Source: Rhabdothermincola salaria
Lineage (GTDB): Bacteria > Actinomycetota > Acidimicrobiia > Acidimicrobiales > Acidimicrobilacustridaceae
Assembly: GCF_021246445.1 (NCBI RefSeq)
Contig: NZ_JAJQXW010000001.1
Coordinates: 922,068 to 986,067 of the forward strand
Direction: 5' to 3'
Length of the DNA stretch: 64,000 bases
Position 1 is the first letter of the stretch, and each line of letters begins with the position of its first letter. The translations under genes and the position numbers were made by a program. Below, piece after piece: positions 25,006 through 42,460 of this stretch. The notes under the pieces were generated by a model. The model saw only the letters and a list, made by a program, of their open reading frames with translations, searched no databases and was not told where the DNA came from.

Positions 25006-25767
25006 TCAGCGGCCCTTCCACTCGGGTGGGCGCTTCTCGATGAACGCCTCGAGGCCCTCCTTGGTGTCCTCGGAGCCCAGGACACGTCCGAAGGCGTCAC
25101 CCGTGGCCTTCTTGATGGTGGCCTCGTCCTCCCAGTCGGCCATCAGGACCAGGTCGCGGCTCTCCCACACCGACAGCGGGGCGTTGGCGGCGATGGTCTC
25201 GGCCATGGCCATGGCGCCCTCGAGAGCCTGACCGGGCTCGGTCACCCGGTTGACCATGCCCAGCTGGTAGGCCCGCTCGGCGGTGAGGTTCTCGGCGGTG
25301 AGGGCCACCTCGAGGGCCACGTTCTTGCCGACCAGCTTGGGGAGGCGGTAGAGGCCGCCACCGGCTGCCACCAGGTTGCGCTTCACCTCGGCGAGCCCGA
25401 AGGCGGCCTGGGTGGACGCCACGATCATGTCGCACGCCAGCGCGATCTCACATCCGCCGGCAGTGGCCAGCCCGTCGATGGCGGCGATGATCGGCTTGCG
25501 GCGCTGCCGGTCCACGATGCCGCCGAACCCTCCCTTGGCGGTGGCCAGCTCGGCGGCCTTGCCGCTGTTGATGGCCTTCAGATCGGCGCCGGCGCAGAAG
25601 ACCGGCCCGTTGGCGGCCAGGACGGCGACCCAGACGTCGGGGTCGGCCTCGAGCGTGTCGAGGTGAGCGTCCATCGCCTGGGCCACATCACCGTTGATGG
25701 CGTTGCGGGCTTCAGGGCGGTTCAGGGTGAGCAGGGCGACGTGGCCCCGCACTTCGTAGTCAACCAT
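25006..25767 (-). CDS. Enoyl-CoA hydratase/crotonase
   Basis: LNRPEARNAI, FCAGADL, GGCEIALACD, FGLAEV. Confidence 0.93.
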   Translation of the reverse strand: MVDYEVRGHVALLTLNRPEARNAINGDVAQAMDAHLDTLEADPDVWVAVLAANGPVFCAGADLKAINSGKAAELATAKGGFGGIVDRQRRKPIIAAIDGLATAGGCEIALACDMIVASTQAAFGLAEVKRNLVAAGGGLYRLPKLVGKNVALEVALTAENLTAERAYQLGMVNRVTEPGQALEGAMAMAETIAANAPLSVWESRDLVLMADWEDEATIKKATGDAFGRVLGSEDTKEGLEAFIEKRPPEWKGR

Positions 25768-25863
25768 GGGGCCGACCTTAGCCAGGGCTGAACGAGCGGG
25801 GCGTACGACGAAGACCGCATCGACCGCCTCGTCGACCAGCGAAGGTAGGATCGCCCCACACCC

Positions 25864-26049
25864 ATGACGAGCTCCGCATCCTCCCGGCGGCCCCTCGAGT
25901 GCCCCTACTGCAACGACTGCGAGGTCGAGCGCCTCTTCCTCGCCTCGTTCGGCCTCGACTCCTGCCAGTGCGGCTCGTGCGGCGCCCGTTGGGACCAGGA
26001 CGCTCGCAGCGGCCAGTACCGCGGCCGGGCCAGCCGCACGTGGATCTGA
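25864..26049 (+). CDS. Small Zn-ribbon protein (61 aa)
   Basis: CPYC..CQCGSC..W; TAGGAT upstream; 4 nt before the HAD gene. Confidence 0.6.
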   Translation: MTSSASSRRPLECPYCNDCEVERLFLASFGLDSCQCGSCGARWDQDARSGQYRGRASRTWI

Positions 26050-26053
26050 CGAC

Positions 26054-26626
26054 GTGACCGAGGTCCTCACGGGACGCGACCTGGTCGTGTTCGACCTCGA
26101 CGGGACCCTGCTCGACTCCGACGCCGCCCTGCTGGCCCCGTTCGCCGAGATGGGGGTCGATCTCAGCGACGTGCGCATGGGATCGGTGGTGGGCGCGGAG
26201 TGCGAGCGGCTGGGTGTCTCCGTCGACGAGTACGTGGCCCGCTACGACACCGAGGTGGTGCAGCCGTTCGCCGGTGTCGAGGACGTGCTGGCCTGCGTGC
26301 CGCGGTGGGCGGTGTGCTCCAACAAGCACCCGATCTCCGGGCGGGCCGAACTGGCCCGCCTCGGCTGGCAGCCCGAGGTGGCCATGTTCACCGACGCCTT
26401 CGCCGGCGCCCCCAAGGAGGTGGGCCCGGTGCTCGATCGCCTCGGAGTCGACGCCGACCGGGCCGTCTTCGTGGGCGACACCTCCCACGACCGGGCCACG
26501 GCGTCGCGGGCCGGGGTCCCGTTCGTCCTCGCCGGCTGGAACCCCCGGGCCCAACCCGGCCCCGGGGACATCGTGGCGCGGCGCCCCGAAGAGCTGCTGG
26601 TCGTGCTCGGACTCGACGCCGTCTAA
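26054..26626 (+). CDS. HAD family hydrolase (phosphoglycolate phosphatase-like)
   Basis: FDLDGTL, SNK, PK, VGDTSHD. Confidence 0.88.
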   Translation: MTEVLTGRDLVVFDLDGTLLDSDAALLAPFAEMGVDLSDVRMGSVVGAECERLGVSVDEYVARYDTEVVQPFAGVEDVLACVPRWAVCSNKHPISGRAELARLGWQPEVAMFTDAFAGAPKEVGPVLDRLGVDADRAVFVGDTSHDRATASRAGVPFVLAGWNPRAQPGPGDIVARRPEELLVVLGLDAV

Positions 26627-26650: not shown

Positions 26651-28366
26651 TCACTCGCCGGTGGTCGTGTCCGGCCCGGGCTCGGGGGCGGTCTCCGCGG
26701 CAGGCTCGGCCGCGGTCTCCGCGGCAGGCTCGGCCGCGGTCTCCGCGGCAGGCTCGGCCGCGGTCTCCGCGGCAGGCTCGGCCGCGGTCTCCGCGGCAGG
26801 CTCGGCAGCGGTCTCCGCGGCAGGCTCGGAGGCAGTGGGAGGCACGGACGGCGACGAGTCGCCTTCGGCCGGCGCCGCCCCGGCGCCGAGGGTCCCTGCG
26901 GGCTGCTCGCCGGCATCGAGCGTGCCGGCCGGCTGCTCGCCGGCATCGAGGCTCGCCGGCGCCGCCGCACCGGGCTCGAGGCTGGGCGGCGCGTCCGAGG
27001 GCGCCGGGGGAGCGGTGGCACCCTCCGCCGGAGCCTGGTCGGGAGCCACGGGGCGATCCTCGACGGGAGCCTCCGGGGCGGCCCCCGCGGCCGGGGCGGG
27101 CGGAGGCGGCTTGCGAGGCCCGCCCTTGCCCTTGGCCCGGGGCCGTCCGGGACGGGCCGACTTCGGCGCCTGGGGCGGCGCCTCGACACCGAACTGGGCG
27201 GCGATCTGCGGCACCCGCGACGCCGCCTTCTTGACGGCGGCGAGGAGCTCGTCGGTGGGCTCGGCGGGGACGGCCTGGGCCGTCACCTGGGATCGCACCG
27301 GCGAGTAGGCCACCGCATCGATGACCGTGGCGAAGCGGTCGGGACCGGTCTCGGCGGTCATCGACGTCCCCGCGGCCTCCACCAGGCGGGTGGCCAGCTC
27401 GGCGGGGAAGGGGGCGCCGGCCTTGGGCGGTCGCGAGCTCAGTCGCAGCGCCCGCACGGAGCGGCCCTCGCGCAACATCTCGTCGATCTCGGCCAACCAG
27501 GCGGCGTGTTCGGCATCGACCCGCTCGGTGAGGGCGGTGCGGAGCTGCTCGGCGAGCTGACGGCTCTCCTCGTCACGGGCCCCCGCATCGGCGGCCACGA
27601 CCACGGAGCGCAGGTCGCGCAGGTCGAGCTCGGCCACCTCGGCCAGGGCCGCCTCGGCCTTGTCGCGCCACTCGGCGGCGCGCAGGGCGGGCATCAGGTC
27701 CTCGGCCATGGCCAGCAGGGGAGAAGCGCTGATCTCGGGCTTGCCCTCGGCGATGTTGGTCTCGTTCTGCTTCTCGACGGCCTGGCGCACGGCCGGGATG
27801 CCACCCCGGAGCACCTGCTCGGCGACGGGCCGCTGCTCCTCGGGAAGGGCGGCCAACGCCTCGTTGCGATGCACCCGGCCGGCCCGGAGCCGCTTGGGCT
27901 TGGGCTTGGGCTCGGGAGCCGGACGCTCGGGGCGGGGACGATCGCTGCGTCCGCCGCGCTCACGCCGTTCGCCGCTGCGGTCGCCGCGGTCCCCTCGACT
28001 GCGCTCGCCCTCGGGGCGGTCGCGCCGACCGCGACCCTCGCGTCGATCACCGTCGCGGCCTCGCCGCTCGCCGCGCCCCTTGGGGGCGAGGGTGGTGGTG
28101 ACCAGCTGCTCGTCGCGCCGGGGCGGGCCGAGGATCTCGAGGCGCTCGGGCTCCTTGCGGGCCCCCTTGGGCGGGAGCACGGCCGTGATCACGATGCCGT
28201 CGATCAAGAAGTCGGCATCGGCGCGCACGACGTCGCCGACCTTGGCGCCGTCGTAGAGCAGGGTGCCGTCGAGATCCCCCTTGGGCTGCTTGGCCCCGGC
28301 GGCACGCCAGGTCCAGGTGCCGTCGTCACGGGTGCTGGTGAGCTCGACTTCGATCCTGCGAGACAT
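26651..28366 (-). CDS. Hypothetical 571-aa protein with Arg-rich linker and repetitive acidic tail
   Basis: Long ORF with normal codon use; beta-rich N-terminus, R/G/D/E-rich linker, helical core, EPAAETAA repeats. Confidence 0.8.
   Translation of the reverse strand: MSRRIEVELTSTRDDGTWTWRAAGAKQPKGDLDGTLLYDGAKVGDVVRADADFLIDGIVITAVLPPKGARKEPERLEILGPPRRDEQLVTTTLAPKGRGERRGRDGDRREGRGRRDRPEGERSRGDRGDRSGERRERGGRSDRPRPERPAPEPKPKPKRLRAGRVHRNEALAALPEEQRPVAEQVLRGGIPAVRQAVEKQNETNIAEGKPEISASPLLAMAEDLMPALRAAEWRDKAEAALAEVAELDLRDLRSVVVAADAGARDEESRQLAEQLRTALTERVDAEHAAWLAEIDEMLREGRSVRALRLSSRPPKAGAPFPAELATRLVEAAGTSMTAETGPDRFATVIDAVAYSPVRSQVTAQAVPAEPTDELLAAVKKAASRVPQIAAQFGVEAPPQAPKSARPGRPRAKGKGGPRKPPPPAPAAGAAPEAPVEDRPVAPDQAPAEGATAPPAPSDAPPSLEPGAAAPASLDAGEQPAGTLDAGEQPAGTLGAGAAPAEGDSSPSVPPTASEPAAETAAEPAAETAAEPAAETAAEPAAETAAEPAAETAAEPAAETAPEPGPDTTTGE
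26688..26829. repeat. 24-bp coding tandem repeat, about 6 copies
   Basis: GCGGTCTCCGCGGCAGGCTCGGCC units encoding EPAAETAA on the minus strand. Confidence 0.95.
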
Positions 28367-28451
28367 AGGTCTGACACGCTACCGCAGCCGACCGCAGCGC
28401 TCGACCGCTCGCCCCGGTGACCCGAGCCCCGCACCCTATGCTCGTCGGGCG

Positions 28452-29159
28452 ATGAGCACCCCCGACGGCGAGACGCCCGAGTTCGACCAGCGACCCTTCA
28501 GCGCGCCGGCCGGCGCCACCGAGGTGCTGCTGGTGCGCCATGGCCAGTCGGCACCGTTCCGCCCCGGTGCGCCGTTCGCCCTGGTCGACGGACAGGGAGA
28601 CCCGCCGCTGTCGGACTTCGGCCGGTGGCAGGCCGATCGGATCGCCGAGCGCCTCGCCGGCGAGTCCGTCGACGCCGTGTACGTCACCACCCTGCGGCGC
28701 ACGGTGGAGACCATCGCCCCGCTGGTCGATCGCGTCGGCGTCGAGGCCCGGGTCGAGCCCGATCTGCGCGAGGTCCACCTCGGGGAGTGGGAGGGAGGCC
28801 TGTTCCGCCAGAAGGTGGCCGAAGGCCACCCGGCCCTGGCCCGGATGGACCGTGACCAGGACTGGGGGGCCATCCCGGGGGCCGAGCCGGTGGCCGCGCT
28901 GCGGGCCCGGGTACGGGGCGCCATCGAGCGGATCCACGCAGCCCACCCCGACCAGCGGGTGGTGGCCGTGAGCCATGGCGGGGCCATCGGCGCGGTGCTG
29001 GCGGAGGCCAGCGGGTCGCGGTCGCTGGCCTTCTCGGGCGCCGACAACGCGTCGATCAGCCACCTGGTCATCCTCGGCGACCGCTGGATCGTGCGGCGCT
29101 TCAACGACACCGGCCATCTGGCCGGAGAGCTCTCGACCCGTCCCGACCAGCTCACCTGA
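28452..29159 (+). CDS. Histidine phosphatase family protein
   Basis: LVRHGQS, LREVHLGEWEG, VSHGG, RFNDTGHL. Confidence 0.92.
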   Translation: MSTPDGETPEFDQRPFSAPAGATEVLLVRHGQSAPFRPGAPFALVDGQGDPPLSDFGRWQADRIAERLAGESVDAVYVTTLRRTVETIAPLVDRVGVEARVEPDLREVHLGEWEGGLFRQKVAEGHPALARMDRDQDWGAIPGAEPVAALRARVRGAIERIHAAHPDQRVVAVSHGGAIGAVLAEASGSRSLAFSGADNASISHLVILGDRWIVRRFNDTGHLAGELSTRPDQLT

Positions 29160-29277
29160 CCCACCGACCCCACCCGTGGCTGTCGGGTCAGCGCGTCGGG
29201 GGGGCGTCCACACCCCGCCAGGTTGCGGATTCTCGAGGTGCACGGGGCACGATCCGGACGACGACCGATCCCTCCGG

Positions 29278-29305
29278 AGTGCCGATAATCCTCGTTATGT
29301 CTAGT
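29278..29305. other. dif: dif site (XerCD chromosome dimer resolution)
   Basis: AGTGCCGATAA-TCCTCG-TTATGTCTAGT, 11-6-11 layout matching E. coli GGTGCGCATAA-N6-TTATGTTAAAT and actinobacterial GCCGATAA..TTATGTCAAGT; AT-rich, intergenic, at the gene-orientation switch. Confidence 0.85.
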
Positions 29306-29618
29306 TATCCCGGTCAGTGCCCGGGTGGCGCCGCCGCCGACCTGACCGGCGCCGACATCGGCTCACCACCCCACCACGAACGGGTCATCACGCTGCGCCC
29401 CTCACGCCGCGAGCGCACTGGCTCCTGACGCCGTGCCTCGGCCGGATGCGAGACCAGGCCGAGACATCCGTCGCCGAGGGGCCCCGCCCCGCCGACCACG
29501 GCTGGGGGCCGAGGCCGGTGGGTGCCCGTGGACGCCCGCGACAGCCCACCGCAGGACCGCCTCGCCGGGGCGCTCGAGCACAGACCGGCTCCTCCGCCCG
29601 AGGGCACCACAATCCGGC

Positions 29619-29640
29619 CATAACGTCACCTGACGCAATG
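29619..29640. promoter_or_regulatory. 22-bp palindromic site, copy 1
   Basis: CATAACGTCA-CC-TGACGCAATG; the 16-bp CGTCACCTGACGCAAT is identical to 31228-31243. Confidence 0.7.
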
Positions 29641-29713
29641 ACCGCAGCTGGTGGCGCGCCCCCCGTGGTGTGGGCGCGGCACCGCTCAGCGATCCCGTCG
29701 CTAGGTTGACCCC

Positions 29714-30814
29714 ATGCACCCCGGCCGATCACGCCGGCCGGGCCGAGCGCCCCGGCCCACACCTCGGTGGTCGGCGCTGGTGGTGGCCGGGCTCGCCGTC
29801 GTCGCCGCGTGCGCCGGCCCCGCCCAACCCACCGCGGTGGCCCCCACCAGCCAGGTGACCACCGCCAGCACCACGACCACGACCACGGGCCCCCGTGCCC
29901 CTCTCGAGGCCAGCGCGGCCGTCGCCGACGCCGTCACCGAGGCGGCCGAGGCCAACGGCCTGGTGCGCTGGCCGTCAGGGCGCCTCACGGTCACGGTCAG
30001 GGGCTCCATCACCCCCCGGGACTCCGAGATCCTCTCCGCCGCCGCCGCCGAGCTCGGCGCGGCCGCCGACCTCGTGCTCGAGGTGGGCTCGCACCCCGAT
30101 CCCGACATCGACGTGCTGTTCGCACCACGGCCGGAGTGGCCCGCAGACCTCCAGGAGATCACCGATCACGTCCTCGGCGTCACCCGATCCACGTGGACGG
30201 GCGACGGCCTGCTCACCGAGGTCCGGGTGGCGATCGACTCCAGCATCGGCCAGGCCGCCCGCAACGAGACCATCGTCCACGAGCTCGTGCACGCACTGGG
30301 GATCGGCCACGTCGCCTGCCCGACCTCCATCGTCCACGGCGGCGGCGAGGGTGCCCCTGGTTGGTCGCTGTCGCCCCTCGACCGTGACCTCGTGCGCACC
30401 TGGTACGCGCCCGAGCTGTCCCCCGGCGATGACGCCGCCGCCGTCCGAGCCGACCTGGTGGTCGTGACGGGCGGACCCGAGTGCGAGGCGCCCGGCCTCG
30501 AGGCGGCCGAGACCCCCGAGGGCACCCTGTGGTGCGAGCTCACCGAGGGCGCCAGCCGACCGTGCGTCGTGGTCGACGGCCTGGGCGCCGAACCGGCTGT
30601 GCCGTTCGGCGCCGCCGCCGAGTGGTGGGTGATGGACGGCATCGTCTTCGATCACGATCCCGACCGGTACGAGGCGTTCGTCTTCGAAGGCCGCCGCCTG
30701 CTGTGCGAGCGCACGCTCGAGGGACGCTGGCCGTGCCAGTTCACCGAGGGGCCGGGCCCGTTGACCGGCGTCGACGCCTGGACCGACGGCGACCTCGTCT
30801 ACGACGCCCCCTGA
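29714..30814 (+). CDS. Secreted lipoprotein with zincin (HExxHxxGxxH) domain and Cys-containing C-terminal repeats
   Basis: Signal peptide ending VAAC, Thr-rich linker, HELVHALGIGH, two LxC..PC..G.G..W..DG.V(F/Y)D repeats. Confidence 0.75.
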   Translation: MHPGRSRRPGRAPRPTPRWSALVVAGLAVVAACAGPAQPTAVAPTSQVTTASTTTTTTGPRAPLEASAAVADAVTEAAEANGLVRWPSGRLTVTVRGSITPRDSEILSAAAAELGAAADLVLEVGSHPDPDIDVLFAPRPEWPADLQEITDHVLGVTRSTWTGDGLLTEVRVAIDSSIGQAARNETIVHELVHALGIGHVACPTSIVHGGGEGAPGWSLSPLDRDLVRTWYAPELSPGDDAAAVRADLVVVTGGPECEAPGLEAAETPEGTLWCELTEGASRPCVVVDGLGAEPAVPFGAAAEWWVMDGIVFDHDPDRYEAFVFEGRRLLCERTLEGRWPCQFTEGPGPLTGVDAWTDGDLVYDAP

Positions 30815-31233
30815 GCGATCGCACCCGGTGGTCGGACGTCGGGATCCTCGGCCCCGGTGCGGGGCTCGATCCACACCTCGGCGAGCGGTCGGGCGTTCTC
30901 CTGCAGCCAGGCCAGGGCTTCGGCCACCTCCCGCGGGTCCGAGGATCGCTCGAGGTCGCGCTCGACGTCCTCGAGCGCGGCCTGCAGGCAGTACAGCCGG
31001 CCCTGGAGGTCCTCGAGCCGTTCACGATCGACGATGACGTCGGCGTCGCCGAGGCCGTGGGCCCCGGCGAGCTTGCGGGCCAGGTACGCCTGCTGGCGAC
31101 ACCCGGCCCGGCAGTAGCGCCGCGGACGCCCCGCACCGCGGCGCTCGGGCAGGTTGCGGCCGCACCAACGGCACCGCCGCGCCGGATCGCTCCCCTGTCG
31201 GCCGGGACCCGGCCCCGCGCTGGATTCCGTCAC
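30799..31233 (-). CDS. Cys4 Zn-finger / AT-hook-like putative DNA-binding protein with coiled coil
   Basis: CRWCGRNLPERRGAGRPRRYCRAGCRQQAY followed by an amphipathic helix; GTG start 7 nt after TAGATT. Confidence 0.75.
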   Translation of the reverse strand: MTESSAGPGPGRQGSDPARRCRWCGRNLPERRGAGRPRRYCRAGCRQQAYLARKLAGAHGLGDADVIVDRERLEDLQGRLYCLQAALEDVERDLERSSDPREVAEALAWLQENARPLAEVWIEPRTGAEDPDVRPPGAIAQGAS

Positions 31234-31244
31234 CTGACGCAATC
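31223..31244. promoter_or_regulatory. 22-bp palindromic site, copy 2, over the Zn-finger gene promoter and start
   Basis: GATTCCGTCA-CC-TGACGCAATC (9 of 10 arm positions match) overlapping the -10 box and GTG. Confidence 0.7.
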
Positions 31245-31279
31245 TAGCGGCGGGGTCGGGTCCCGTGGGTGATCCCCGA

Positions 31280-32485
31280 TCAGCCGGTGAAACGGGGCGT
31301 CACCACCACACCTGGCCCCGACGGGGTCGGCGCGGTGCTCGCCGGAGCGACCTCGGTGGTCGTGCTCGTCGTGCTCGTCGTGGTGGTGGTGCTGGCGGGG
31401 GGCGGCGGTGGCACCGGCAGCGGGAACGGGGCCAGGGCCAGACCCCACACCCCCTGGTAGGTGGCGAACACGTCGGCGAAGCCGTCGCTGAAGGGCGACG
31501 ACAGGGCTCCGGCATCGGCGCCCGAGGCGATGACCCAGGTCTCCAGCGACACGAGGGGGTCCTGGCCCCCGACCGCCCACTCGCCCAACGGCTCGCCGAG
31601 CGCCACCAGGGCCTGCAGGACCACGGCGGTCGAGTTCGGGTCGGCGCCGAAGCTCAACAGGTCGAAGGCGAAGCCGCCGCGGTGGGTGCCGTCGTCCTCC
31701 TGGAGCTGGCTGAAGAAGGTGCCCGGGTCGGTGTCGAGCAGCCCCAGCGCGTCCGTGGCCGCCAGGGCCTGCACCGCGAAGGAGGTGTTGTTGCTGTCCG
31801 GGCTCAGGTACTCGGGATCACCGACGACCACGCAGTCGGCCAGCCCGGCACCCTCCGGCGCCCGGTATCCCTGCCAGCCCCCGAGGGTCTCGGCCGGCCC
31901 TTCACCGGCACCGCACTGCTGGTCGGCGAGCCATCCGAGCGAGCCGGCCGGGACGGTCTCGCCGGCCGCGACCAGGCCGAGCACGGCCAGCGACTGCAGC
32001 GTCGCGGACGAATAGGAGTCGGGGACACCGAACAGGCCGGTCTCGGATACCTCGTAGGTGGCCAGCGTCCGCCCGACGAGATCGGTGCCGGGTGACCCGA
32101 AGGCCCGGGGGTCGCGCTCGGTGGCGACGGCCAGCATGGTGAGGTAGCCGAGTCGACCCGGGTTGTCGACGCCCCCCACCACGGCGTAGTCGTCGACACG
32201 GGCCTCCAGGTAGCCCATGGCGGCGTCGAGCGCCTCGGGCTGCGTGCCGGTGGTGGCCAACGACAAGGCCACGTTCACCGTCCAGCTCACGGAGGGCACG
32301 CCGGGGTCGTAGGGGTTCTCCACCGACCCGTCGGGACCCACGAGGCCGGCCAACCAGGCGGTGGCCGGCCCGGCCGCCGGCGACGACGCCGAGGTGGGGC
32401 TGGGCACGACCAGCGCGCCGAGCACGGCGGCGATCGTGACGACGACCACCAAGAGGCGTCGTCGGGTCGGGTGCAACAGGGTCAT
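31280..32485 (-). CDS. Secreted prenyltransferase/squalene-cyclase-repeat (alpha/alpha barrel) protein, cobalamin-riboswitch controlled
   Basis: Signal peptide; helical repeats QSLAVLGLVAAG, DSNNTSFAVQALAA, DPNSTAVVLQALVALG, ATYQGVWGLA; P/T linker; ends VVVTPRFTG. Confidence 0.75.
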   Translation of the reverse strand: MTLLHPTRRRLLVVVVTIAAVLGALVVPSPTSASSPAAGPATAWLAGLVGPDGSVENPYDPGVPSVSWTVNVALSLATTGTQPEALDAAMGYLEARVDDYAVVGGVDNPGRLGYLTMLAVATERDPRAFGSPGTDLVGRTLATYEVSETGLFGVPDSYSSATLQSLAVLGLVAAGETVPAGSLGWLADQQCGAGEGPAETLGGWQGYRAPEGAGLADCVVVGDPEYLSPDSNNTSFAVQALAATDALGLLDTDPGTFFSQLQEDDGTHRGGFAFDLLSFGADPNSTAVVLQALVALGEPLGEWAVGGQDPLVSLETWVIASGADAGALSSPFSDGFADVFATYQGVWGLALAPFPLPVPPPPPASTTTTTSTTSTTTEVAPASTAPTPSGPGVVVTPRFTG

Positions 32486-32610
32486 GGGGATCCTCGATCG
32501 GTCGGGGCGGACGAGACGCCTCCCCCGCTCCCCCACGCTCGGCCCGCTCGACCGACTCGCAGATTCCCGGGCTCGGCACCGCAGTCCGCGACGGTGCATG
32601 CAGAGCTCTC

Positions 32611-32707
32611 GTGACCGGTCAGGTGATCCGACTCGCCGAGGGTCACCCCTCGACACACGGTTGCGGGACAGCGCCGGACTCTCACCGGACTTCCCCTCAC
32701 CGGGCAC
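32611..32707 (-). ncRNA. Cobalamin riboswitch (compact form)
   Basis: Minus strand GGGGAAGTCCGGTGAGAGTCCGGCGCTGTCCCGCAACCGTG..GAGTCGGATCACCTG core and B12 box. Confidence 0.88.
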
Positions 32708-32828
32708 GTGTTCGTGTAGCGCTCGCCATCCGAGCACGCCCGCCCACCCGCCGTCAACCACGCTCCTACACTCGGGACCGAGACGGGGCTCGGGGGATCG
32801 ACCCCACCCTCGAGGCGAGGAGGCTGCG

Positions 32829-33626: not shown

Positions 33627-33706
33627 CGCCGCCCACCGGCGCCCGCGCGGTCACCGGTCGACGCTTCGGGGGTTGTACCCTCGTCGCACAACCGACGCCG
33701 ACCACC

Positions 33707-33800
33707 GCGTGCGGGAGAGACCCGGTCGCGGCCCTCGGGCCACGGCCGGGCGCCGAAGGAGCAACCGCCCCGGAAACTCTCAGGCACCCGTACCGCACGC
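33707..33800 (+). ncRNA. Glycine riboswitch aptamer 1
   Basis: GGGAGAGA..CGCCGAAGGAGCAA..GAAACTCTCAGGC; P1 GCGTGCGG/CCGCACGC; upstream of gcvP. Confidence 0.92.
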
Positions 33801-33808
33801 ACCAGGCA

Positions 33809-33902
33809 ACTCTGGAGAGCAGCCTCGCGAGGGGCTCACCGACGGGGAAGGTCACGACGCCCACGGGCGCCGGGCGAAAACTCTCAGGTCCAACGACAGA
33901 GC
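33809..33902 (+). ncRNA. Glycine riboswitch aptamer 2
   Basis: CTCTGGAGAG..CACCGACGGGG..AAAACTCTCAGGT..GACAGAG. Confidence 0.88.
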
Positions 33903-33953
33903 GGGGTCCCCCACCCGATCCGGCGCGCCCGCCGGCACCGAGAGGACCCGACC

Positions 33954-36869
33954 GTGACCGACGCCCCACCCCCCACCGGCCTCCGCCTGAGCGACCTCGA
34001 CGACGCCCGCGCCTTCGTGGACCGCCACGTCGGGCCCGACGCCGGCGACGTGGCCACCATGCTCGAGCAGCTGGGCCTCGAGTCGCTCGACGCCCTCCTC
34101 GACGCCGTGGTGCCCTCGTCGATCCGCGACGACGCCCCGTTGCAGCTGCCCCCGGCGCGCTCCGAGCCCGAGGTGACCGCCGCCCTCCGGACCCTGGCCG
34201 ACGCCAACACCGTGCGCACCTCCCTCATCGGCACGGGCTGGTACGCCACCGTGACGCCCCCGGTCATCCGCCGCAACGTGCTCGAGAACCCGGCCTGGTA
34301 CACCGCCTACACGCCCTACCAGCCCGAGATCAGCCAGGGCCGCCTCGAGGCGCTGCTCACGTACCAGACCATGGTCTGCGACCTCACCGGCACCGAGCTC
34401 ACCAATGCGTCGATGCTCGACGAGGCGACCGCCGCGGCCGAGGGCATGGCGCTCGTGCACCGGGTGAACCCCAAGGCCGGCTCGGTGTTCGTGGTCGACC
34501 CCGACACCCACCCCCAGACCGTCTCGGTGGTGCAGACCCGGGCCGAGCCGCTCGGGCTCGAGGTCGTGGTCGCCGACCCGGCCGCACCGCTGCCCGACGG
34601 CACCTTCGGTGTCCTGGTCTCCCACCCGGGCTCCAGCGGAGAGCTCCGTCCGCTGGAGCCGGTCATCGCCGCGGCCCACGAGGCCGGAGCGCTGGTCGTC
34701 GTCGCCACCGACCTGCTGGCCTGCTGTGTGATGACCCCGCCCGGAGAGCTGGGGGCCGACGTCGTGGTCGGCTCCTCCCAGCGCTTCGGTGTGCCCATGG
34801 GGTTCGGGGGCCCGAGCGCCGGCTTCCTGGCCACCCGGGAGTCCTACAAGCGCACCCTGCCCGGCCGGCTGGTGGGGGTGTCGGTCGACGCCGCCGGTCG
34901 TCCGGCCTACCGGCTGGCCCTGCAGACCCGTGAACAGCACATCCGCCGCGAGAAGGCCACGTCGAACATCTGCACCGCCCAGGTGCTGCTCGCCGTCATG
35001 GCCGGGATGTACGCCGTCTGGCACGGCCCCGAGGGCCTGGCCCGGATCGCCACCCGGGTGCACCGCCTCACCAGCGTCCTGGCCGCCGGCCTCCGGACGG
35101 CCGGCGCCGACGTCGTCACCACCGCCTTCTTCGACACCCTCACCGTGCGGGTCCCGGGCCGGGCCTCCAGCGTGCTGACGGCCGCCCGGGACCTCGACCT
35201 CGAGCTGAGGTCGATCGACGACGACCACGTCGGGCTCAGCCTCGACGAGACCTCGACCATCGCGACCGTCGAGGCGGTCTGGGCTGCCTTCGGTGTCACC
35301 GACGCCCCGGACGTCACGGCCGTCGATGCCGCCACCGCCGATGCGCTCCCCACCGAGCAACGCCGTACCAGCGAGTTCTGCACCCACCCGGTCTTCCACA
35401 CCCATCGCAGCGAGACCGAGATGCTGCGCTACCTGCGCCGGTTGGCCGACGCCGACCTGGCCCTCGACCGGGCCATGATCCCCCTCGGCTCGTGCACCAT
35501 GAAGCTCAACGCCACCACCGAGATGGAACCCATCTCCTGGCCCGGCTTCGCCGACCTGCACCCCTACGCCCCCGCCACCGACGCCCAGGGCTACCGCACC
35601 CTCACCGACGACCTCGAGCGCTGGTTGTGCGAGGTCACCGGGTACGACGCCGTCTCGCTGCAGCCCAACGCCGGCTCCCAGGGCGAGTTCGCCGGTCTGC
35701 TGGCCATCCGGGCCTGGCACCGCAGCCGGGGCGAGGAGCACCGCGACGTGTGCCTCATCCCCGCCTCGGCCCACGGCACCAACGCCGCCAGCGCCGCCAT
35801 GGCCGGCATGCGCGTGGCCGTCGTGGCCTGCGACACCGACGGCAACGTCGATCTCGACGACCTCCGCACCGTCCTCGCCACCCACGCCGACCGGGTGGCC
35901 GCCCTCATGGTCACCTACCCGTCGACCCACGGCGTGTTCGAGGAGGCCATCGGTGACATCTGCGCAGCCGTCCACGACGCCGGCGGCCAGGTCTACCTCG
36001 ACGGGGCCAACCTCAACGCCCTGGTCGGCGTGGCCAAGCCCGGCCGGTTCGGCGCCGACGTGAGCCACCTCAACCTCCACAAGACGTTCTGCATCCCCCA
36101 CGGCGGCGGCGGTCCCGGCGTGGGGCCGGTGGCGGTCCGCTCCCACCTGGCGCCGTTCCTGCCGTCACACCCCGTGGTCGCCGCCGCCGGGCCGACCGGA
36201 ACCGACGGGCACGACGCACCCATCGGCGCGGTGTCGGCCGCCCCGTGGGGGTCGGCCGGGATCCTGCCCATCCCCTGGGCCTACGTGGCCCTCATGGGTC
36301 CCGACGGCCTGCGCCACGCCACTGCGGTGGCCATCCTGAGCGCCAACTACGTGGCCCGACGCCTCGGCGAGGCCTACCCCATCCTCTACAGCGGTCGCCA
36401 CGGCCTGGTGGCCCACGAGTGCATCCTCGACCTGCGACCCATCACCAAGGCCACCGGCATCACCGTCGACGACGTGGCCAAGCGCCTGATCGACTACGGC
36501 TTCCACGCGCCGACCATGTCGTTCCCGGTGGCCGGCACGTTGATGGTCGAGAGCACCGAGAGCGAGAGCCTGCTCGAGCTCGACCGCTTCTGCGACGCCA
36601 TGCTCGCCATCCGCGCCGAGATCGAGCAGGTGGCCTCGGGGGCGTGGCCGGCCGACGACAACCCACTGCTCAACGCCCCGCACCCGGCCGCCGACGTGGC
36701 CGACGACGAGTGGACCCACCCCTACCCGCGTCGCCTGGCGGGATGGCCCGCCGGCGGCACCGCTCGCCTGGGGAAGTACTGGCCGCCGGTGAGCCGGATC
36801 GACGGCGCCTACGGAGATCGCAACGTGGTGTGCTCGTGCCCACCGGTGGAGGCCTTCGCCGACGTCTGA
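33954..36869 (+). CDS. gcvP: Glycine dehydrogenase (single-chain P protein)
   Basis: [44 protein letters not shown]. Confidence 0.97.
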
Positions 36870-36899: not shown

Positions 36900-38009
36900 T
36901 CACAGGGCGCTGGCGCCCTTCGAGGCCCGGCTGTCGACGAACGGCAGCGGGACCACCCGGGCCGCCACGGCAGTGCCACGCACGTCGATCGCCAGCTCGT
37001 CGCCCTCCACCGTCTCGGGGGGCAGGAAGGCCAACGCGATCCCGTGGCCCAGCACGGGAGAGAAGTTCCCGCTCGTCACGGCCCCGACCGTCTCGCCGCC
37101 ACGGAGCACCGGCTGCCCCTCGCGGGGCGGGCGCCGACCCTCGGTGGCCAGGCCCCGGAGCCGGCGGCCCGGTCCGGCGTCGCGTTCGACCTCGAGCGGA
37201 TCGCGTCCCCGGAACGGCCCCTTCTCCCAGGCCACGACCCACCCGAGGTTGGCCTGCAGGGGGGTGATGCCCGGGCCCAGCTCGTGACCGTGCAGGGGCA
37301 GGCCGGCCTCCAGGCGCAACGTGTCGCGCGCGCCGAGGCCCGCCGGCTCGATGCCGGCAGCCACGAGGGCGTCGAACAGGCCCCCGGCATCGAGGGCCGG
37401 GACGGCGATCTCGAGGCCGTCCTCGCCGGTGTAGCCGGTGCCCGCCACGGTCAGATCGATCCCCTCCCACTCGACGGAGGCGACCGCGAAGCGCCGGACG
37501 CGAGCGGCGGCGGGCACGACCTGCGCCAGACGCTCGCGCGCCTTGGGGCCCTGGACGGCCAACACGGCGCGCTCGGCGGTGACGTCGGTCGCCGTCACCT
37601 CAGCACCCAGGGCGGCAGCCTCCTCGGCCAGCGCCCGCGTGACCCCCTCGGTGTTCGAGGCGTTGGGCATCACGTCGAAGGTCTCCGGCCCCACCCAGAA
37701 CACGATGATGTCGTCGACGACGGACGCGTCGTGGGCGTCGAGCAGGTGGGTGTACTGCGCCCGCCCCGGATCGATGCGGGTGAGGTCGTTGGTCAGAGCC
37801 CGCTGCAGGGTGAGGAGGGCACCGGGGCCGGCCACCCGCACCGTGCCGAGGTGGGACACGTCGAACACGACGGCCCCGTGCCGGCACGCCCGGTGCTCGG
37901 CCAGGGTGCCCTCCGGGTAGGACAGCGGCATCTCCCAGCCCCCGAAGGGCACCATCTTGGCGTCGAGGGCACGGTGGGTGGCGTCGAGGGGCGAGCGGCG
38001 ATCGGTCAC
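36900..38009 (-). CDS. gcvT: Glycine cleavage T protein
   Basis: VPFGGWEMPLSY, FDVSHLG, TGYTGEDG, GLGARDTLRLEAG. Confidence 0.95.
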   Translation of the reverse strand: MTDRRSPLDATHRALDAKMVPFGGWEMPLSYPEGTLAEHRACRHGAVVFDVSHLGTVRVAGPGALLTLQRALTNDLTRIDPGRAQYTHLLDAHDASVVDDIIVFWVGPETFDVMPNASNTEGVTRALAEEAAALGAEVTATDVTAERAVLAVQGPKARERLAQVVPAAARVRRFAVASVEWEGIDLTVAGTGYTGEDGLEIAVPALDAGGLFDALVAAGIEPAGLGARDTLRLEAGLPLHGHELGPGITPLQANLGWVVAWEKGPFRGRDPLEVERDAGPGRRLRGLATEGRRPPREGQPVLRGGETVGAVTSGNFSPVLGHGIALAFLPPETVEGDELAIDVRGTAVAARVVPLPFVDSRASKGASAL

Positions 38010-38094
38010 CCGTCGACCCTACCCCTGGGCTCGCTCCCGCTCCCGCTCCCGCTCCCCCGCCCGGCCCGAGGCCACCCACCCCGGGCCGACATCC

Positions 38095-38853
38095 TCATTG
38101 CGGAGGCGGGGCCAGCGGGCCGCGGGCGGTGAGTCGTTCCACCCACGTGGAGGCCACCTCGACCTCTCCCCCGTCGCCGCCCCAGCCCACCAGGAGACCC
38201 TCGGCGAGCGAGCGGGCGAGCGGCGCGGCGCGGAACAGGTGGCGGTCGAGGGGTGCCAGCCGATCGAGGCGGAGCACCCCGAGCAGCGACGCGTGCCAGA
38301 CGAGGGCACGCGCCACGGGGTCGCCGGGCTGGAGGCTCTGGTGGTCGACGGCGTCACCCAGACGCCCGACCACCGGGTCGAGGACTCGGTGGACCACGGG
38401 CAGCAGCTCGCCGGCGAGGGCCCGCTCGAGCGGCGGGGCGGTCGGAGGCGCCTCGCCGAGCAGCTCGCGGACGAGGGCGACCTCGTCGGGGTAGACGACG
38501 GCGGCGGCGGCCAGGAAGCCGGCGTGGGCGAGGAGCTCCACGAGAGGACGGGTGCTGTCCTCGACGTCCTCGGTGGCGAGGTCCTCGTCCCACCGGGCCC
38601 GACCGGCCCGGTACGAGTGCTCGAGCGTCGCCACCGCTTCGGCCTGGAGCCCGGCCAGCAGGGCCGCCTTGGAGGCGAAGGCGGTGTAGAGGGTGCCGAC
38701 GGCGCAGTCGAGCTGGTCGGCGACGGCCTGCATCGTGACCCCGGCCAGGCCCTCGCGGTCGATGACCGCGCCGGCCGCAGCCAGGATCCGCTGCCGCTTC
38801 AGCTCCCGGGTGCGCTCACGCCGGTCGTCGGGGACGACCTTCAGATGAACCAT
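38095..38853 (-). CDS. TetR/AcrR family regulator
   Basis: ILAAAGAVIDREGLAGVTMQAVADQLDCAVGTLYTAFASK HTH; start approximate. Confidence 0.88.
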   Translation of the reverse strand: MVHLKVVPDDRRERTRELKRQRILAAAGAVIDREGLAGVTMQAVADQLDCAVGTLYTAFASKAALLAGLQAEAVATLEHSYRAGRARWDEDLATEDVEDSTRPLVELLAHAGFLAAAAVVYPDEVALVRELLGEAPPTAPPLERALAGELLPVVHRVLDPVVGRLGDAVDHQSLQPGDPVARALVWHASLLGVLRLDRLAPLDRHLFRAAPLARSLAEGLLVGWGGDGGEVEVASTWVERLTARGPLAPPPQ

Positions 38854-38879
38854 GTTCACAGTATGAACGTGGTTCATCT
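38843..38879. promoter_or_regulatory. Double palindromic operator over the tetR start
   Basis: AGATGAACCATGTTCA-CAGTA-TGAACGTGGTTCATCT: 16-bp inverted arms, each containing TGAAC-N3-GTTCA. Confidence 0.75.
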
Positions 38880-39130
38880 CACCGGCGCGGATGGTTCCCC
38901 CCGAACGGGGTCACGCCCCGTCGTCCGTCCGCCGGGCCAGCGGTCGTCATCTGGCCTCTGGGCCGAGACCGACGGACCGGTGCACCCGTCGGCCGGAACC
39001 GGCGGCGCTCGTCGCCCCCCCCGACGCCCCTCCCCTCCCCCGCGTGTCACGCGGCACCGCCGATCCCGGACGGGATCGGCGGATCAGCGAGCGAGGGGCG
39101 GCGCGGGGCGGCGACGGAGGGGTGGGGCGA

Positions 39131-39601
39131 TCAGGACCCGGCGGCCAGCGACGTGACGGTGGCCCCGGCCGATGTGGTGGGGTGCAGCTCGTGGATGCGG
39201 GCATCGACCTCGTCGCGCACGCCGCCCAGGGCGAGGATGTTGAGCACGCCCTGGCCCTTCTTCACCAGGTCGATGAGCTCGCCGTCGTCCTGGATCACCA
39301 CCGAGGAGCTGCCCTGGATCACCAGGTTGGCGGTGGTGATGTCGGCACCGAGGTGGTCGCGCAGGTAGCCGAAGACGTCGCGGACGTTCTCGAGCTTGAT
39401 CCCGGCGTCGAGGAGGCTCTTGACGACCTTCAACTCGAGCAGGTCGGTGTAGCTGTAGCGGCGGCGGCTGCCGCTCCCGGCGGCGTCGACGAGCGAGGGC
39501 CTCACCAGGTCGGTGCGGGCCCAGTAGTCGAGCTGGCGATAGCTGATCCCCACGATCTCTGCGGCCTTGGCGCCGCTGAAGCCCTCGTCCTTGGTGCTCA
39601 T
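39131..39601 (-). CDS. MerR-family regulator (Rv1830/McdR-like)
   Basis: GISYRQLDYWART.LV.PS..GSGSRRRYS..LLDAGI; synteny with the garA block. Confidence 0.9.
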   Translation of the reverse strand: MSTKDEGFSGAKAAEIVGISYRQLDYWARTDLVRPSLVDAAGSGSRRRYSYTDLLELKVVKSLLDAGIKLENVRDVFGYLRDHLGADITTANLVIQGSSSVVIQDDGELIDLVKKGQGVLNILALGGVRDEVDARIHELHPTTSAGATVTSLAAGS

Positions 39602-39795
39602 CGTTGCTCCTCGAGGGCCCGTGCCCGGTGGGTGATCACGCTCACGTGGAGGGTGACAGGGCCTCTGGCTCCACCTGAGGTCGTCATGACAGCGGTGAAA
39701 CTACGCCCGTGAGAGCTGGAGGGTACGACGTGCGGGACGCCCGGTCAACGATCGCCGCCGTTCGGCCACGGAAGGGCCGGGCCCGGAGGGACCGC

Positions 39796-40293
39796 TCAGG
39801 AGGCGAAGTCGTCCGGGTTCACCGAGTCGATGAACTCCCGGAACTGCTCCACGACGTCCTCGCCCCCGGCCTCGTCGCCGTCCTCGTCGACCTCTTCGGG
39901 CAACCCGGCCTCGTCGAGGAGCTCCTCGGTGGCGAAGATGGGGCACTCCACCCGCAGGGCCAACGCCATGGCGTCGGAGGGACGGCTCGACACCTGCACC
40001 CGGCGATCGCCGGTCTGGAGGTGGAGGTCGGCGTAGAAGGTGCCCTCCTCGAGGTGGGTGATCACCACCCGCTCGACCACGGCCCCGAGCTCGGCGACGA
40101 CGTCGCGCATCAGGTCGTGGGTCATGGGGCGCTGGGTCACCACGCCGTCGAGGGCGAAGGCGATGGCGGCCGCTTCGGGTTGGCCGATGAAGATCGGCAG
40201 CAGCCGGTGCTCGCCCTCGCGCTCACGCAGCACGACGACGGGGATGTTGCCGGGCAACTCGATGCGAACGGCGACCAACTCCATCTCGACCAT
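39796..40293 (-). CDS. Bifunctional nuclease / DUF151 protein (Rv1829-like)
   Basis: LPIFIGQPEA, RPMTHDL, SRPSDAMALA, FREFIDSVNPDDF. Confidence 0.92.
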   Translation of the reverse strand: MVEMELVAVRIELPGNIPVVVLREREGEHRLLPIFIGQPEAAAIAFALDGVVTQRPMTHDLMRDVVAELGAVVERVVITHLEEGTFYADLHLQTGDRRVQVSSRPSDAMALALRVECPIFATEELLDEAGLPEEVDEDGDEAGGEDVVEQFREFIDSVNPDDFAS

Positions 40294-40386
40294 CCTTCGC
40301 ACCCTACCGGGCCGGGGCGGCACCGGGACCGCCCAATCCGGTCCGATGCGCGGGCCGGGGTGGTGGGTCGGTCGGGTCGAGGGCCC

Positions 40387-41532
40387 TCAGGCGCGCCCGA
40401 GGTACTCGCGCAGCGCGGCGCGCACCATGGCCGCCCGGAGATCGTCGGCCAGCTCGGCGAGGTCCTCGAGCATCTCGACCGCCTCCTGCCGGGCCGCCGG
40501 TCGACGTTGCTTGAGCAACGGGGTGATGAGCTGCTCGAACAACCCGGCCTCGCGCTCGGCGGCCACCTTGTACATGCGCAGGTGGCGGGGCTCGATGCCG
40601 TAGCGGCCGAAGCTGACGGCCAGGCGGGCCACGATGAGCGCGTCCTCGTCGTAGTAGTCGACCGAGCCCATGGTGCGGGCCCCGAGCAGCCCGTAGCGCT
40701 CCAGCTCCCCCAGTTGCCTGGGGGTGAGACCGGTGGCCGCGCACAGGTCGTCGAGCGACAGCGTCACCGACGCGTCGTCGGCCAGGCGGATCGGGGCGTC
40801 GTCGTCGGAGTCGTCGGGCTCGGCGGGCGGCACCTCGTCGCCCGGCGTGTGCCCGGTGGGGTGACGACGTCGACCCCGGCGGGCCCGCTCGGCAGGGGTC
40901 GAGGCGCTCTCGGGGGCCTCGACCAGGCGGGCGACGGCCCGGGCCCGGTCGTGGTCGTCGGGCTCGGCGTCATCGCTGGCGTCGCCGAGCGCCGGGTGCC
41001 CGGTCGGCTCGTCGTCGATCACCACACCGGCCCGACGCAGCAACGTGAGGGGGGCTCGGGCGGGTTCGGGTGCATCGGCCGTGGACCCGGGCCCCTCGTC
41101 GGCGGAGGGCTCCGGTGGTTCGTCGACGGTGGCGGGCACCACCTGGGCCTCTGCGGGCTCGGTGACCTCGGTGACCTCGGAGGACTCCGGGGCCGATGCC
41201 TGGTCACCCACGGGCGGTGAGCCGGGTGCGGGGGCGCCGTCCGCGGCCAGGGGCAGGACGCCCTCCGGCGACCCGTCACCGAGGTCGCCGGCCGCCAGAC
41301 GGTCCTTGATGACCTTGAGGGGCAGGAAGTGGTCGCGCTGCTGGGTCAGGATCCAACGCAGCCGGTCGATGTCGGTGTCGTGGAACTTGCGGTAGCCCGA
41401 CGGGGTGCGCTCGGGGTCGAGCAGGCCCTGGCTCTCGAGGAAGCGGATCTTGGAGATGGTGATGTCGGGGAAGTCCGGCTGCAGCAGCGTCAGGACCTCA
41501 CCGATCGAGAGGTGGGTGCGGTCGGCGCCCAT
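40387..41532 (-). CDS. MerR-family regulator (FtsR/Rv1828-like) with long disordered linker
   Basis: SIGEVL..FPDITISKIRFLE..RTPSGYRKF..QRDHFLPLKVIK; second domain GIEPRHLR. Confidence 0.88.
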   Translation of the reverse strand: MGADRTHLSIGEVLTLLQPDFPDITISKIRFLESQGLLDPERTPSGYRKFHDTDIDRLRWILTQQRDHFLPLKVIKDRLAAGDLGDGSPEGVLPLAADGAPAPGSPPVGDQASAPESSEVTEVTEPAEAQVVPATVDEPPEPSADEGPGSTADAPEPARAPLTLLRRAGVVIDDEPTGHPALGDASDDAEPDDHDRARAVARLVEAPESASTPAERARRGRRRHPTGHTPGDEVPPAEPDDSDDDAPIRLADDASVTLSLDDLCAATGLTPRQLGELERYGLLGARTMGSVDYYDEDALIVARLAVSFGRYGIEPRHLRMYKVAAEREAGLFEQLITPLLKQRRPAARQEAVEMLEDLAELADDLRAAMVRAALREYLGRA

Positions 41533-42023
41533 CACTCCTCGCCGGCACCCTGGAAGAACACCAGCTTGAACTTGCCGATCTGCACCTCGTCGCCGTTGGC
41601 CAGCGGTGCCTCCTCGATGCGCTCCCGGTTGAGGTAGGTGCCGTTGAGCGAGCCGGTGTCGCAGACCATGTAGTGGTCGTCGTCGTCGCGCCGGAACTCG
41701 GCGTGGCGACGCGAGACGGTGATGTCGTCGAGGAAGATGTTGCTGTCGGGGTGCCGGCCGGCCGTCGTGCAGGCGGTCTCGAGGGCGTAGCGGCTCCCTG
41801 CCTTCGGCCCCCGCTTGACGACCAGCACGCCGGTGTCGCGGGGGACCTCCTCGAGGTCGAGCGCGACGTCGTCTTCGACCGGGTCGGCGGGGGCCGACGG
41901 GTGGAAGGTGATCGTGGTGTTCTCCGGTGCGACGGTCTCGAGGATCGCGCCACACGACGAGCAGAAGTTCGACCCGAGTGGGTTGCGGTGCCCGCAGTTG
42001 TTGCAGAAGACCTCGCTCACCAC
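41532..42023 (-). CDS. garA: Zn-ribbon + FHA protein (GarA/OdhI-like)
   Basis: CNNC..CSSC, ENTTITF (ETTS-like), GRHPDSNIFLDDITVSRRHAEF, GSLNGTY. Confidence 0.82.
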   Translation of the reverse strand: MVSEVFCNNCGHRNPLGSNFCSSCGAILETVAPENTTITFHPSAPADPVEDDVALDLEEVPRDTGVLVVKRGPKAGSRYALETACTTAGRHPDSNIFLDDITVSRRHAEFRRDDDDHYMVCDTGSLNGTYLNRERIEEAPLANGDEVQIGKFKLVFFQGAGEE

Positions 42024-42024
42024 G

Positions 42025-42405: not shown

Positions 42406-42460
42406 GGCCGCACGCTACCCGATCCGCCGAACCCTCGACACGAGGATGAGACTTGCCGCC

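Follow-up and report, generated by a model that had tools for sequence, protein, structure and literature searches.

The DNA examined here is a window of 64,000 nucleotides from Rhabdothermincola salaria (contig NZ_JAJQXW010000001.1, positions 922,068 to 986,067 of the forward strand), and our subject is a small gene that lies in it, together with two copies of a short palindrome, beside a dif site. The gene (30799-31233, minus strand; open reading frame (ORF) and homologue alignments) encodes a protein of 144 aa, formed by a zinc ribbon and a helical hairpin, has a GTG start and is probably leaderless; the GTG at 31233 was preferred over the listed TTG at 31242 because the homologues start with MT[EK]. 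The dif site (29279-29306, plus strand; GTGCCGATAA-TCCTCG-TTATGTCTAGTT) is 28 bp long, of the classical 11-6-11 XerCD type, and is the sole match in the window at 17 or more of the 22 arm positions. Its arms match those of the dif site of Frankia alni (CACGCCGATAATGCACATTATGTCAAGT, as given in a passage of PMC3025954) at 8 of 8 positions in GCCGATAA and 10 of 11 in TTATGTCTAGT, or 18 of 19 overall.

The dif site is present in single copy and lies where replichore polarity switches. Among ORFs filtered by G+C content at third codon positions (GC3), 19 of 19 to the left of 24 kb are on the plus strand and most of those to the right of 37 kb are on the minus strand, so that the genes converge on the dif region. 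An unbiased search for words pointing at dif from both sides found GGGGGAG, all 11 plus-strand copies of which end at or before 27012 and all 12 minus-strand copies of which start at or after 32520; the strand switch falls within the interval 27006-32526, bounded by the last plus copy (27006-27012) and the first minus copy (32520-32526). The dif call holds, both as a real site and as one at the polarity switch. GGGGGAG is under-represented in the window (23 copies against 33.8 expected). Pooled over 64 of the related loci described below, 232 copies point toward dif and 28 away from it on the gene side, and 241 and 10, respectively, on the other side; the best 8-mers pointing at dif are CGGGGGAG, GGGGAGCG and TGGGGGAG (72/0 and 72/0). 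The word is a candidate FtsK-orienting polar sequence (KOPS-type motif) for Acidimicrobiales, and with the dif consensus of the group it would be useful to locate the terminus in assembled genomes of these poorly studied bacteria. We take the left arm of dif to be XerC-like and the right arm XerD-like, by analogy with Escherichia coli. GC skew is a poor terminus marker here: it is about -0.06 left of dif, on what gene orientation and GGGGGAG polarity indicate to be the leading strand, and reaches its minimum near 38 kb, away from dif. The difference in skew between the left and right sides is positive, the sign of a terminus, in 40 of 41 loci, which are not mutually independent.

The 16-mer CGTCACCTGACGCAAT occurs exactly twice in the window, both times on the plus strand (29624-29639 and 31228-31243), against 0.02 copies expected; none of 100 shuffles gave two copies, and the window holds no further match with two mismatches or fewer. 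The first-pass annotation of this DNA, which had reported the two same-orientation copies, placed each of them within a 22-bp palindrome. Both palindromes are indeed present, neither being assigned to a strand: copy 1 (CATAACGTCACCTGACGCAATG, 29619-29640; hereafter P2) is the predicted binding site proximal to dif, and copy 2 (GATTCCGTCACCTGACGCAATC, 31223-31244; hereafter P1) is a putative operator over the start codon of the zinc-ribbon gene itself. They are, however, imperfect, with 9 of 10 arm pairs matching in copy 2 (GATTC-CGTCA-CC-TGACG-CAATC) and 8 of 10 in copy 1 (CATAA-CGTCA-CC-TGACG-CAATG), and the central CC is not self-complementary. Exact matches to CGTCA-N2-TGACG in the window are just these two copies; with one mismatch a site at 16010 is added, the resulting three against 4.9 expected being within chance. 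The two copies agree in their central GG/CC, which is rare, and in the flank CAAT.

As had been noted, copy 2 extends over the GTG start (31233-31231, minus strand) and over three of the six bases of a -10-like box, TAGATT (31241-31246, minus strand; read from the sequence), which lies 7 nt 5' of the start codon, the box of the window being one base off the position usual in the family. Copy 1 lies 318 bp from dif, close to the figure of about 315 bp given before, and 75-84 bp upstream of the ATG (29714) of a lipoprotein gene; its flanks lack the TANNNT box found at P1. A generic scan of 29.1-31.4 kb for sigma-70 promoters and terminators gave no match, including none at TAGATT, and an Rfam scan of 27-34 kb found riboswitches only, none of them at the palindromes or in the DNA between P2 and dif.

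The zinc-ribbon protein and the palindrome on its gene start

Database searches returned 315 homologues of the protein at E<=1e-3, the best 120 of which share 61-99% identity, and a profile search returned 624 representative clusters at 50% identity, of which 206 reach E<=1e-10. The named homologues, whether close or divergent, come only from Acidimicrobiia, Acidimicrobiales, Aquihabitans or unclassified Actinobacteria/Actinomycetota, a taxonomy that rests on few source names. No Pfam or NCBIfam family matches the 144-aa protein even at E<=1, a sequence-profile search of the PDB gave a best E of 0.37, Foldseek returned no PDB match at E<=0.001 and generic helical hairpins only, and a tblastn search against plasmids and phages gave no match. 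In a protein atlas the sequence falls with unnamed actinobacterial clusters, the nearest named families being DUF2116 (0.77) and YacG (0.76), both below the tool's threshold for a lead. Twelve longer homologues were scanned for fused domains; 11 have none and one carries an HNH domain, which is probably a gene-call fusion.

The alignment bears out the CxxC..GRPRRYCxxxC pattern that had been read from the single sequence. After the N-terminal MT[EK] come C21-x2-C24, the GRP motif G35-R36-P37-R-R-Y-C41 and C41-x3-C45, the last Cys being replaced by His in some divergent members; C21, C24, C41 and G35-R36 are invariant across the alignment, and P37 is kept in close relatives, with Arg or Lys on both sides. 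The zinc ribbon is followed by a basic helix (RQQAYLARK) and then by an acidic helical hairpin, and the N-terminal half of the protein is strongly basic. A confident AlphaFold2 model built on 56 sequences (mean predicted local distance difference test score, pLDDT, 81.5) places the zinc knuckles at about residues 20-45 and three helices at 43-58, 70-96 and 100-119, with the GRP motif within the folded zinc ribbon; in a canonical AT-hook the GRP core, flanked by basic residues, contacts AT-rich minor grooves and is not part of such a fold. The flanks of the palindrome are AT-rich, in a genome of 72% GC. It would be a small DNA-binding protein of Acidimicrobiia that has not been described before.

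A genome scan with the family alignment yielded 76 related loci, 1.16 Mb in total, which were all oriented with the gene on the plus strand and are referred to below by L numbers; with the window, they make 77 sequences. Exact CGTCA-N2-TGACG has 82 matches in 64 of the 76 loci, against 1.1 in composition-preserving shuffles. Fifty-seven of the matches lie on the gene start (P1), six, in six loci, are second copies 90-275 bp upstream of the gene, in tandem with P1, 11 lie between the gene and dif or just past the gene (P2) and eight lie elsewhere. A locus of about 20 kb carries between zero and two exact sites (zero in 12 loci), nearly all of them less than 0.5 kb from the gene or from dif. When one or two mismatches are allowed in the ten core positions, 15 more loci have a site on the start codon, which brings the count to 72 of the 74 with upstream sequence; the site is missing in L032 and L044, and L026 and L058, which are cut off, were left out of the 74. 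The palindrome is in this way conserved upstream of the homologues, as the first-pass annotation would have it, and its conservation fits a putative dimeric autorepressor.

The consensus of the 20-24 bp site, drawn from 61 sequences (60 loci and the window), is TARTWT-CGTCAC/GTGACG-AAAYYA. At the dyad stands an NTG that serves as start codon (G in 49 and A in 10 of 61); ACG encodes Thr2 and AAA or GAA encodes Lys3 or Glu3. The left flank is a TANNNT box (T in 39, A in 41 and T in 54 of 61), with its end 6 nt ahead of the start codon. Leaderless promoters of actinobacteria have this geometry, known from mycobacterial studies of transcription start sites. Conservation is symmetric from -6 to +17, that is, into codons 2-4, and there is none outside that span; the N-terminus MT[EK] would be fixed because the operator DNA extends into these codons. 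Since the symmetry reaches into the coding region, the site resembles that of a dimeric protein, and since it is nearly confined to one small gene, it is most simply the operator of the gene product's own gene. Autorepressors have this layout, in which a conserved symmetric site overlaps the -10 box and start of the regulator gene. Towards its ends the palindrome resembles -10 boxes on both strands (in several loci, TAATAT...ATATTA).

The gene, its sites and dif in related genomes

Scored over the 22 arm positions with a threshold of at least 16, dif was found in 64 loci and in the window (65 of 77 sequences), never more than once per sequence. Its strand is always opposite to that of the gene, and therefore the XerD-like arm faces the gene. 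At this threshold dif abuts the end of the ORF in 48 of 77 sequences (gap of -12 to +95 bp, median 9 bp, in the 46 measured; L008 and L029, in which an upstream stop was met in scoring, were placed among the 48 by hand), and in five others (L012, L020, L053, L071 and L074) a weaker dif directly follows the stop codon. In 17 of 77, dif is displaced 206-7041 bp downstream, the distance being 1492 bp in the window; it is upstream of the gene in one sequence (L019), was not found in the 2.1-6.6 kb downstream of the gene in four (L014, L026, L043 and L044), and two contigs end at the gene (L061 and L072). Synteny of the homologues with dif had been put forward as a check on the first-pass annotation; the outcome is strongly positive and tighter than had been guessed. 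The site keeps a single orientation, and in 53 of 77 sequences the gap between the end of the ORF and dif is -12 to about +95 bp, which leaves little or no room for a terminator.

The junctions themselves can be closer than mere adjacency. In L011, L021, L024 and L020 the stop codon is a TAA inside the dif arm, L022 has the identical gap of -12 (its junction sequence is not displayed), and in several other loci the stop codon overlaps the first bases of the dif 28-mer. The codons of a conserved C-terminal W-I-E-P-R-T lie about 15-40 bp from dif in 13 of 20 junctions displayed in a 45-bp view. Judged by these positions, the gene appears to be the last of one replication arm in Acidimicrobiia, normally ending at or inside the outer edge of dif. 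Because the gene ends at dif, its operator lies about 370-490 bp from dif, and a predicted binding site is found 141-489 bp from dif in 58 of the 65 dif-bearing sequences. The dif-linked module is real and is conserved across the class.

The 18 sequences in which dif does not adjoin the end of the ORF (the 17 with a downstream dif, and L019) form a displaced set. Thirteen of them have, on the gene side of dif and at a distance of 141-351 bp, a second palindrome with no more than one mismatch in the core. The distance is 337 bp in the window, 340 in L001, 309 in L002, 322 in L010, 351 in L033, 321 in L036, 331 in L051, 235 in L047, 216 in L064, 292 in L068 and 224 in L039; L037 has a site at 246 bp and a degenerate copy at 141, and in L019, where the gene is inverted, the gene's own start-codon site is beside the same arm, about 311 bp from dif. 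The inserted DNA between the gene and the second site varies by locus, from 1.1 to 7 kb, and the neighbouring genes have either orientation. The second sites keep the core but not the TANNNT box, and are putative binding sites and not promoter copies. In a quick, weakly resolved tree of the zinc-ribbon family the displaced arrangements are scattered; the well-supported forks force at least three changes, and the tree as a whole needs six.

In the window, the spacer between dif and P2 (X; 29307-29618, no strand) appears non-coding and has no Rfam match at E<=1. Such spacers are not conserved in sequence, being unalignable among the 11 loci that have one. The possibility that the spacer is a decayed copy of the zinc-ribbon gene was rejected (the 66 translated frames gave a best E of 0.0064, at 8.4 bits), and so was that of a duplicated dif beside the gene: in the 18 loci with dif displaced or not found, the best remnant scored 9-12 of 22 against a background mean of 10.3, and therefore no footprint of Xer-mediated integration is seen. 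Local repeats occur in the dif-side spacers of L001 (11620-12003, with hairpin-like units of about 40 bp, GGAGGCAGAT...ATCTGCCTCC), L037 (7128-7417) and L051 (13384-13758), none of them common to the loci, and the spacer of L033 (16646-17040) has a small ORF toward dif with a zinc-ribbon-like CPRCGG...CANC pattern. In L019, from Aquihabitans sp. G128, dif is followed by some 290 bp of DNA, the start-codon palindrome, the gene and a second palindrome (about 9638-10405); the inversion could have come from recombination between the two palindromic sites.

Neighbouring genes

The gene order around dif is gcvP, class II aldolase, a gene with a B12 riboswitch, the zinc-ribbon gene, dif, histidine phosphatase and a DUF3071-like gene, and it is syntenic on both sides of dif: of the 76 loci, 56 have gcvP, 61 the aldolase, 40 the histidine phosphatase and 57 the DUF3071-like gene. 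The lipoprotein gene of the window (29714-30814, plus strand; called as an ORF), whose product has an HExxHxxGxxH metalloprotease-like motif and Pfam matches that are all sub-threshold (DUF2927, Matrixin and Astacin), separates the zinc-ribbon gene from dif as an insert specific to its lineage; it has no homologue in the 76 related loci, and the view that it belongs to the conserved module is not upheld.

On the other side of the zinc-ribbon gene, a membrane protein gene (31280-32560, minus strand) with a sub-threshold match to the SCO2321 family (60.6 bits against a cutoff of 300) is preceded by an adenosylcobalamin (AdoCbl) riboswitch (32568-32721, minus strand, 52.6 bits) and ends 37-46 bp upstream of the start of the zinc-ribbon gene; its stop (...RFTG*) is kept just before the operator in many loci. 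A tandem glycine riboswitch (33702-33909, plus strand, 54.7 and 41.6 bits) lies upstream of gcvP, encoding glycine dehydrogenase (33954-36869), and is followed at 36900-42414, on the minus strand, by gcvT, genes for TetR, MerR, a bifunctional-nuclease-domain protein and an FHA protein with an N-terminal zinc ribbon, and gcvH. The gcvT-gcvH cluster of the window, which is within 13 kb of dif, resembles the mycobacterial gcvH-garA-merR-Rv1829 neighbourhood. The neighbour of dif on the other side (26651-28366, minus strand) encodes a protein of 571 aa with C-terminal AAEPAAET repeats and no Pfam family above threshold, the N-terminal domain of which is found in 57 of the 76 loci. Four records (L034, L038, L071 and L062) are titled 'uncultured Bifidobacterium sp.', 'Bifidobacterium breve' or 'Acidobacteria bacterium'; they carry the fully syntenic locus of the Acidimicrobiales type, and therefore these bins are probably mislabelled.

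Possible roles at dif and likeness to known systems

The repeat that first drew attention to this locus would be the core of a binding site for the protein encoded at 30799-31233, a small basic zinc ribbon with a helical hairpin, which would probably bind the palindrome as a dimer. The palindrome spans the DNA from the -10 box to codon 4, with its dyad on the start codon of a probably leaderless mRNA; RNA polymerase would therefore be kept off by a protein bound there, and the gene would repress itself, which would keep the amount of the protein low and fixed. One dimer could then always be parked a few hundred base pairs from the XerD-like arm. Where other DNA, such as the lipoprotein gene of the window, stands between the gene and dif, a second, promoter-less site is kept at about 140-350 bp from dif. 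The protein might assist dimer resolution by XerCD/FtsK, in an architectural or accessory capacity, and could shape the synapse as accessory proteins do at the plasmid sites cer and psi; alternatively, it might be a boundary or roadblock that protects dif, stopping or marking FtsK or transcription nearing the site. Transcription from the gene's own promoter must, in the compact arrangement, enter dif, and autorepression would therefore limit transcription across dif. That the protein is an autoregulatory DNA binder is, in our judgement, quite probable, and the comparison of loci supports autoregulation well. A functional role at dif is a real possibility that stops short of being probable. For the whole reading, in which the protein binds the palindrome, represses itself and is stationed beside dif to act there, we lean, with some reserve, towards acceptance.

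The alternative that deserves most attention is that of a plain local autorepressor of its own gene and of a few neighbours, in the window the lipoprotein gene, for which the adjacency to dif would be inherited gene order and nothing more; we find it somewhat doubtful, though by no means far-fetched. Several observations weigh against the reading that we lean towards, and those on gene order and on further sites speak for this alternative. It was the protein, and not dif, by which the loci were gathered; they are related to one another and share synteny on both flanks of dif, and the adjacency could therefore be an order inherited at a convergent intergenic spot, which is where dif naturally lies. 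Copy 1 of the window, 84 bp upstream of the lipoprotein ATG, is well placed as the operator of that gene, the second site of L035 overlaps the start of a hydrolase-like ORF, and the tandem upstream operators of six loci are typical of repressors. Good additional palindromes lie 1.6-3 kb past dif in L030 (12104), L034 (12091), L038 (9410) and L042 (13327), adjoining homologues of the enoyl-CoA hydratase gene of the window (25006-26241), which itself has no such site, and suggest an ordinary small regulon. Five of the 18 displaced cases break the second-site rule, L009, L050 and L075 having no site nearby and L032 and L035 having theirs on the other side of dif, 398 and 267 bp off. The fold of the protein has no significant structural relative in the PDB, and GC skew in the window does not flip at dif. 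It counts against a plain local repressor that 53 of 77 sequences have the end of the ORF at dif, inside it or no more than about 100 bp away, that the second sites hold to 141-351 bp from dif whatever the insert (1.1-7 kb), and that the inversion in L019 keeps a site beside the same dif arm. Moreover, in L036 and L047 the gene beside the second site ends there and does not start there, and in L037, L039 and L068 there is no gene between the second site and dif.

Three further explanations fare worse. The palindrome might be bound not by this protein but by another regulator, or be a bidirectional -10/start element of leaderless promoters, as the likeness of its outer parts to -10 boxes on both strands and the absence of the protein from any recognised DNA-binding family would allow; yet 63 of the 82 exact matches are at or just upstream of the zinc-ribbon gene, a promoter needs no symmetric half inside a coding region, the second sites keep the core without the TANNNT box, and the N-terminal half of the protein is strongly basic, with an invariant GRP motif. 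We consider this explanation improbable. A terminus organiser of the kind of MatP-matS, with many sites over a large terminus domain condensed by the protein, was the analogy drawn in the first-pass annotation. Gene and sites do lie at the terminus, and the half-sites GTCAC/GTGAC are the 5-mers of matS in the opposite arrangement, but there is no array of sites, with two exact ones in 64 kb and zero to two per related locus of about 20 kb, at the gene or at dif, and no match to the MatP family; this reading is very improbable. Least probable of all, and close to negligible, is that copy 1 and the spacer are a functionless remnant of a duplicated gene start or of Xer-integrated DNA. The central GG/CC and the CAAT common to both copies of the window would fit duplication or gene conversion, but the 66 frames of the spacers hold no trace of the protein (best E 0.0064), the 18 loci hold no dif remnant beside the gene, and the second-site core is intact in 12 related loci with spacers that cannot be aligned. 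As a whole, the interpretation first given to this locus is partly supported.

To our knowledge, dimer resolution on chromosomes requires no more than XerC/D, dif and FtsK, and accessory DNA-binding proteins of Xer recombination are not known outside plasmid sites. A literature search, which did not extend to supplements, found nothing on this protein, nor on a dif site in Acidimicrobiia, and there was nothing relevant among the matches listed for dif/Xer accessory zinc proteins, MatP/matS or KOPS in Actinobacteria. A bolder form of the reading that we lean towards is that of a dedicated, non-recombinase dif factor encoded in cis and fused to dif, a self-limiting zinc-ribbon dimer held about 150-500 bp from the XerD-like arm throughout the class. 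Such a factor would license the resolution of dimers by XerCD/FtsK, give it direction or shield it, or else would anchor dif at the site of division; we offer it tentatively and regard it as rather doubtful. If true, a family conserved throughout this actinobacterial class would add a further level of control to the terminus, without counterpart in model bacteria; if the protein is only a repressor, the locus would be a striking case of genomic hitch-hiking. The predicted site, the protein and dif are each delimited with single-base precision, and there are cultured relatives, among them Aquihabitans daechungensis DSM 27986 and Aquihabitans sp. G128 and McL0605.

Each of the known systems that come to mind shares some features with this locus and departs from it in others. 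The matS motif of enterobacteria is built from GTCAC/GTGAC half-sites, and MatP-matS is likewise terminus-linked, with a probably dimeric binder, as is predicted here, on a short palindrome of such half-sites; here, however, there are one or two sites and not about two dozen over hundreds of kilobases, the fold and the arrangement of the half-sites differ, and at E<=1 neither Pfam nor NCBIfam offers a family for the protein. Autorepressors of leaderless actinobacterial genes have the same placement of a palindrome on the start of transcription and translation, with TANNNT 6 nt upstream, but the protein described here has a zinc ribbon with a GRP motif instead of a helix-turn-helix, and belongs to no described family. 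YacG, DUF2116 and the CGNR finger have a similar Cys pattern (CxxCG[KR] ... RP..C-x3-C) followed by a helix; none of their Pfam families matches at E<=1, and the C-terminal hairpin is missing from them. YacG, moreover, binds gyrase and not DNA.

Closer in genomic arrangement are the xerS-difSL and xerH-difH modules, in which a gene dedicated to dif adjoins the site and is inherited with it, as the adjacency in 53 of 77 sequences recalls. Unlike XerS and XerH, the protein of 144 aa, with its zinc ribbon and three helices, has no integrase domain and is not a tyrosine recombinase, and dif is here of the classical 11-6-11 XerCD type. The accessory proteins of cer and psi (PepA, ArgR and ArcA) are, as is proposed here, sequence-specific binders at sites beside the XerCD core, and they control the reaction. 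The zinc-ribbon protein shows no homology to them and no family, PDB sequence or fold match; the site is chromosomal and not on a plasmid, with the protein encoded in cis beside it, and a single palindrome 140-490 bp off takes the place of contiguous accessory DNA. The accessory DNA of cer lies on the XerC side, whereas here the site is on the side of the XerD-like arm. A passage of PMC5357621 gives cer a core of 30 bp and about 180 bp of accessory sequence, and a further source on such accessory proteins is bioRxiv 10.64898/2026.02.23.706985. We propose, by analogy, that among these systems the zinc-ribbon protein and its palindrome would work most like the accessory factors of cer and psi.

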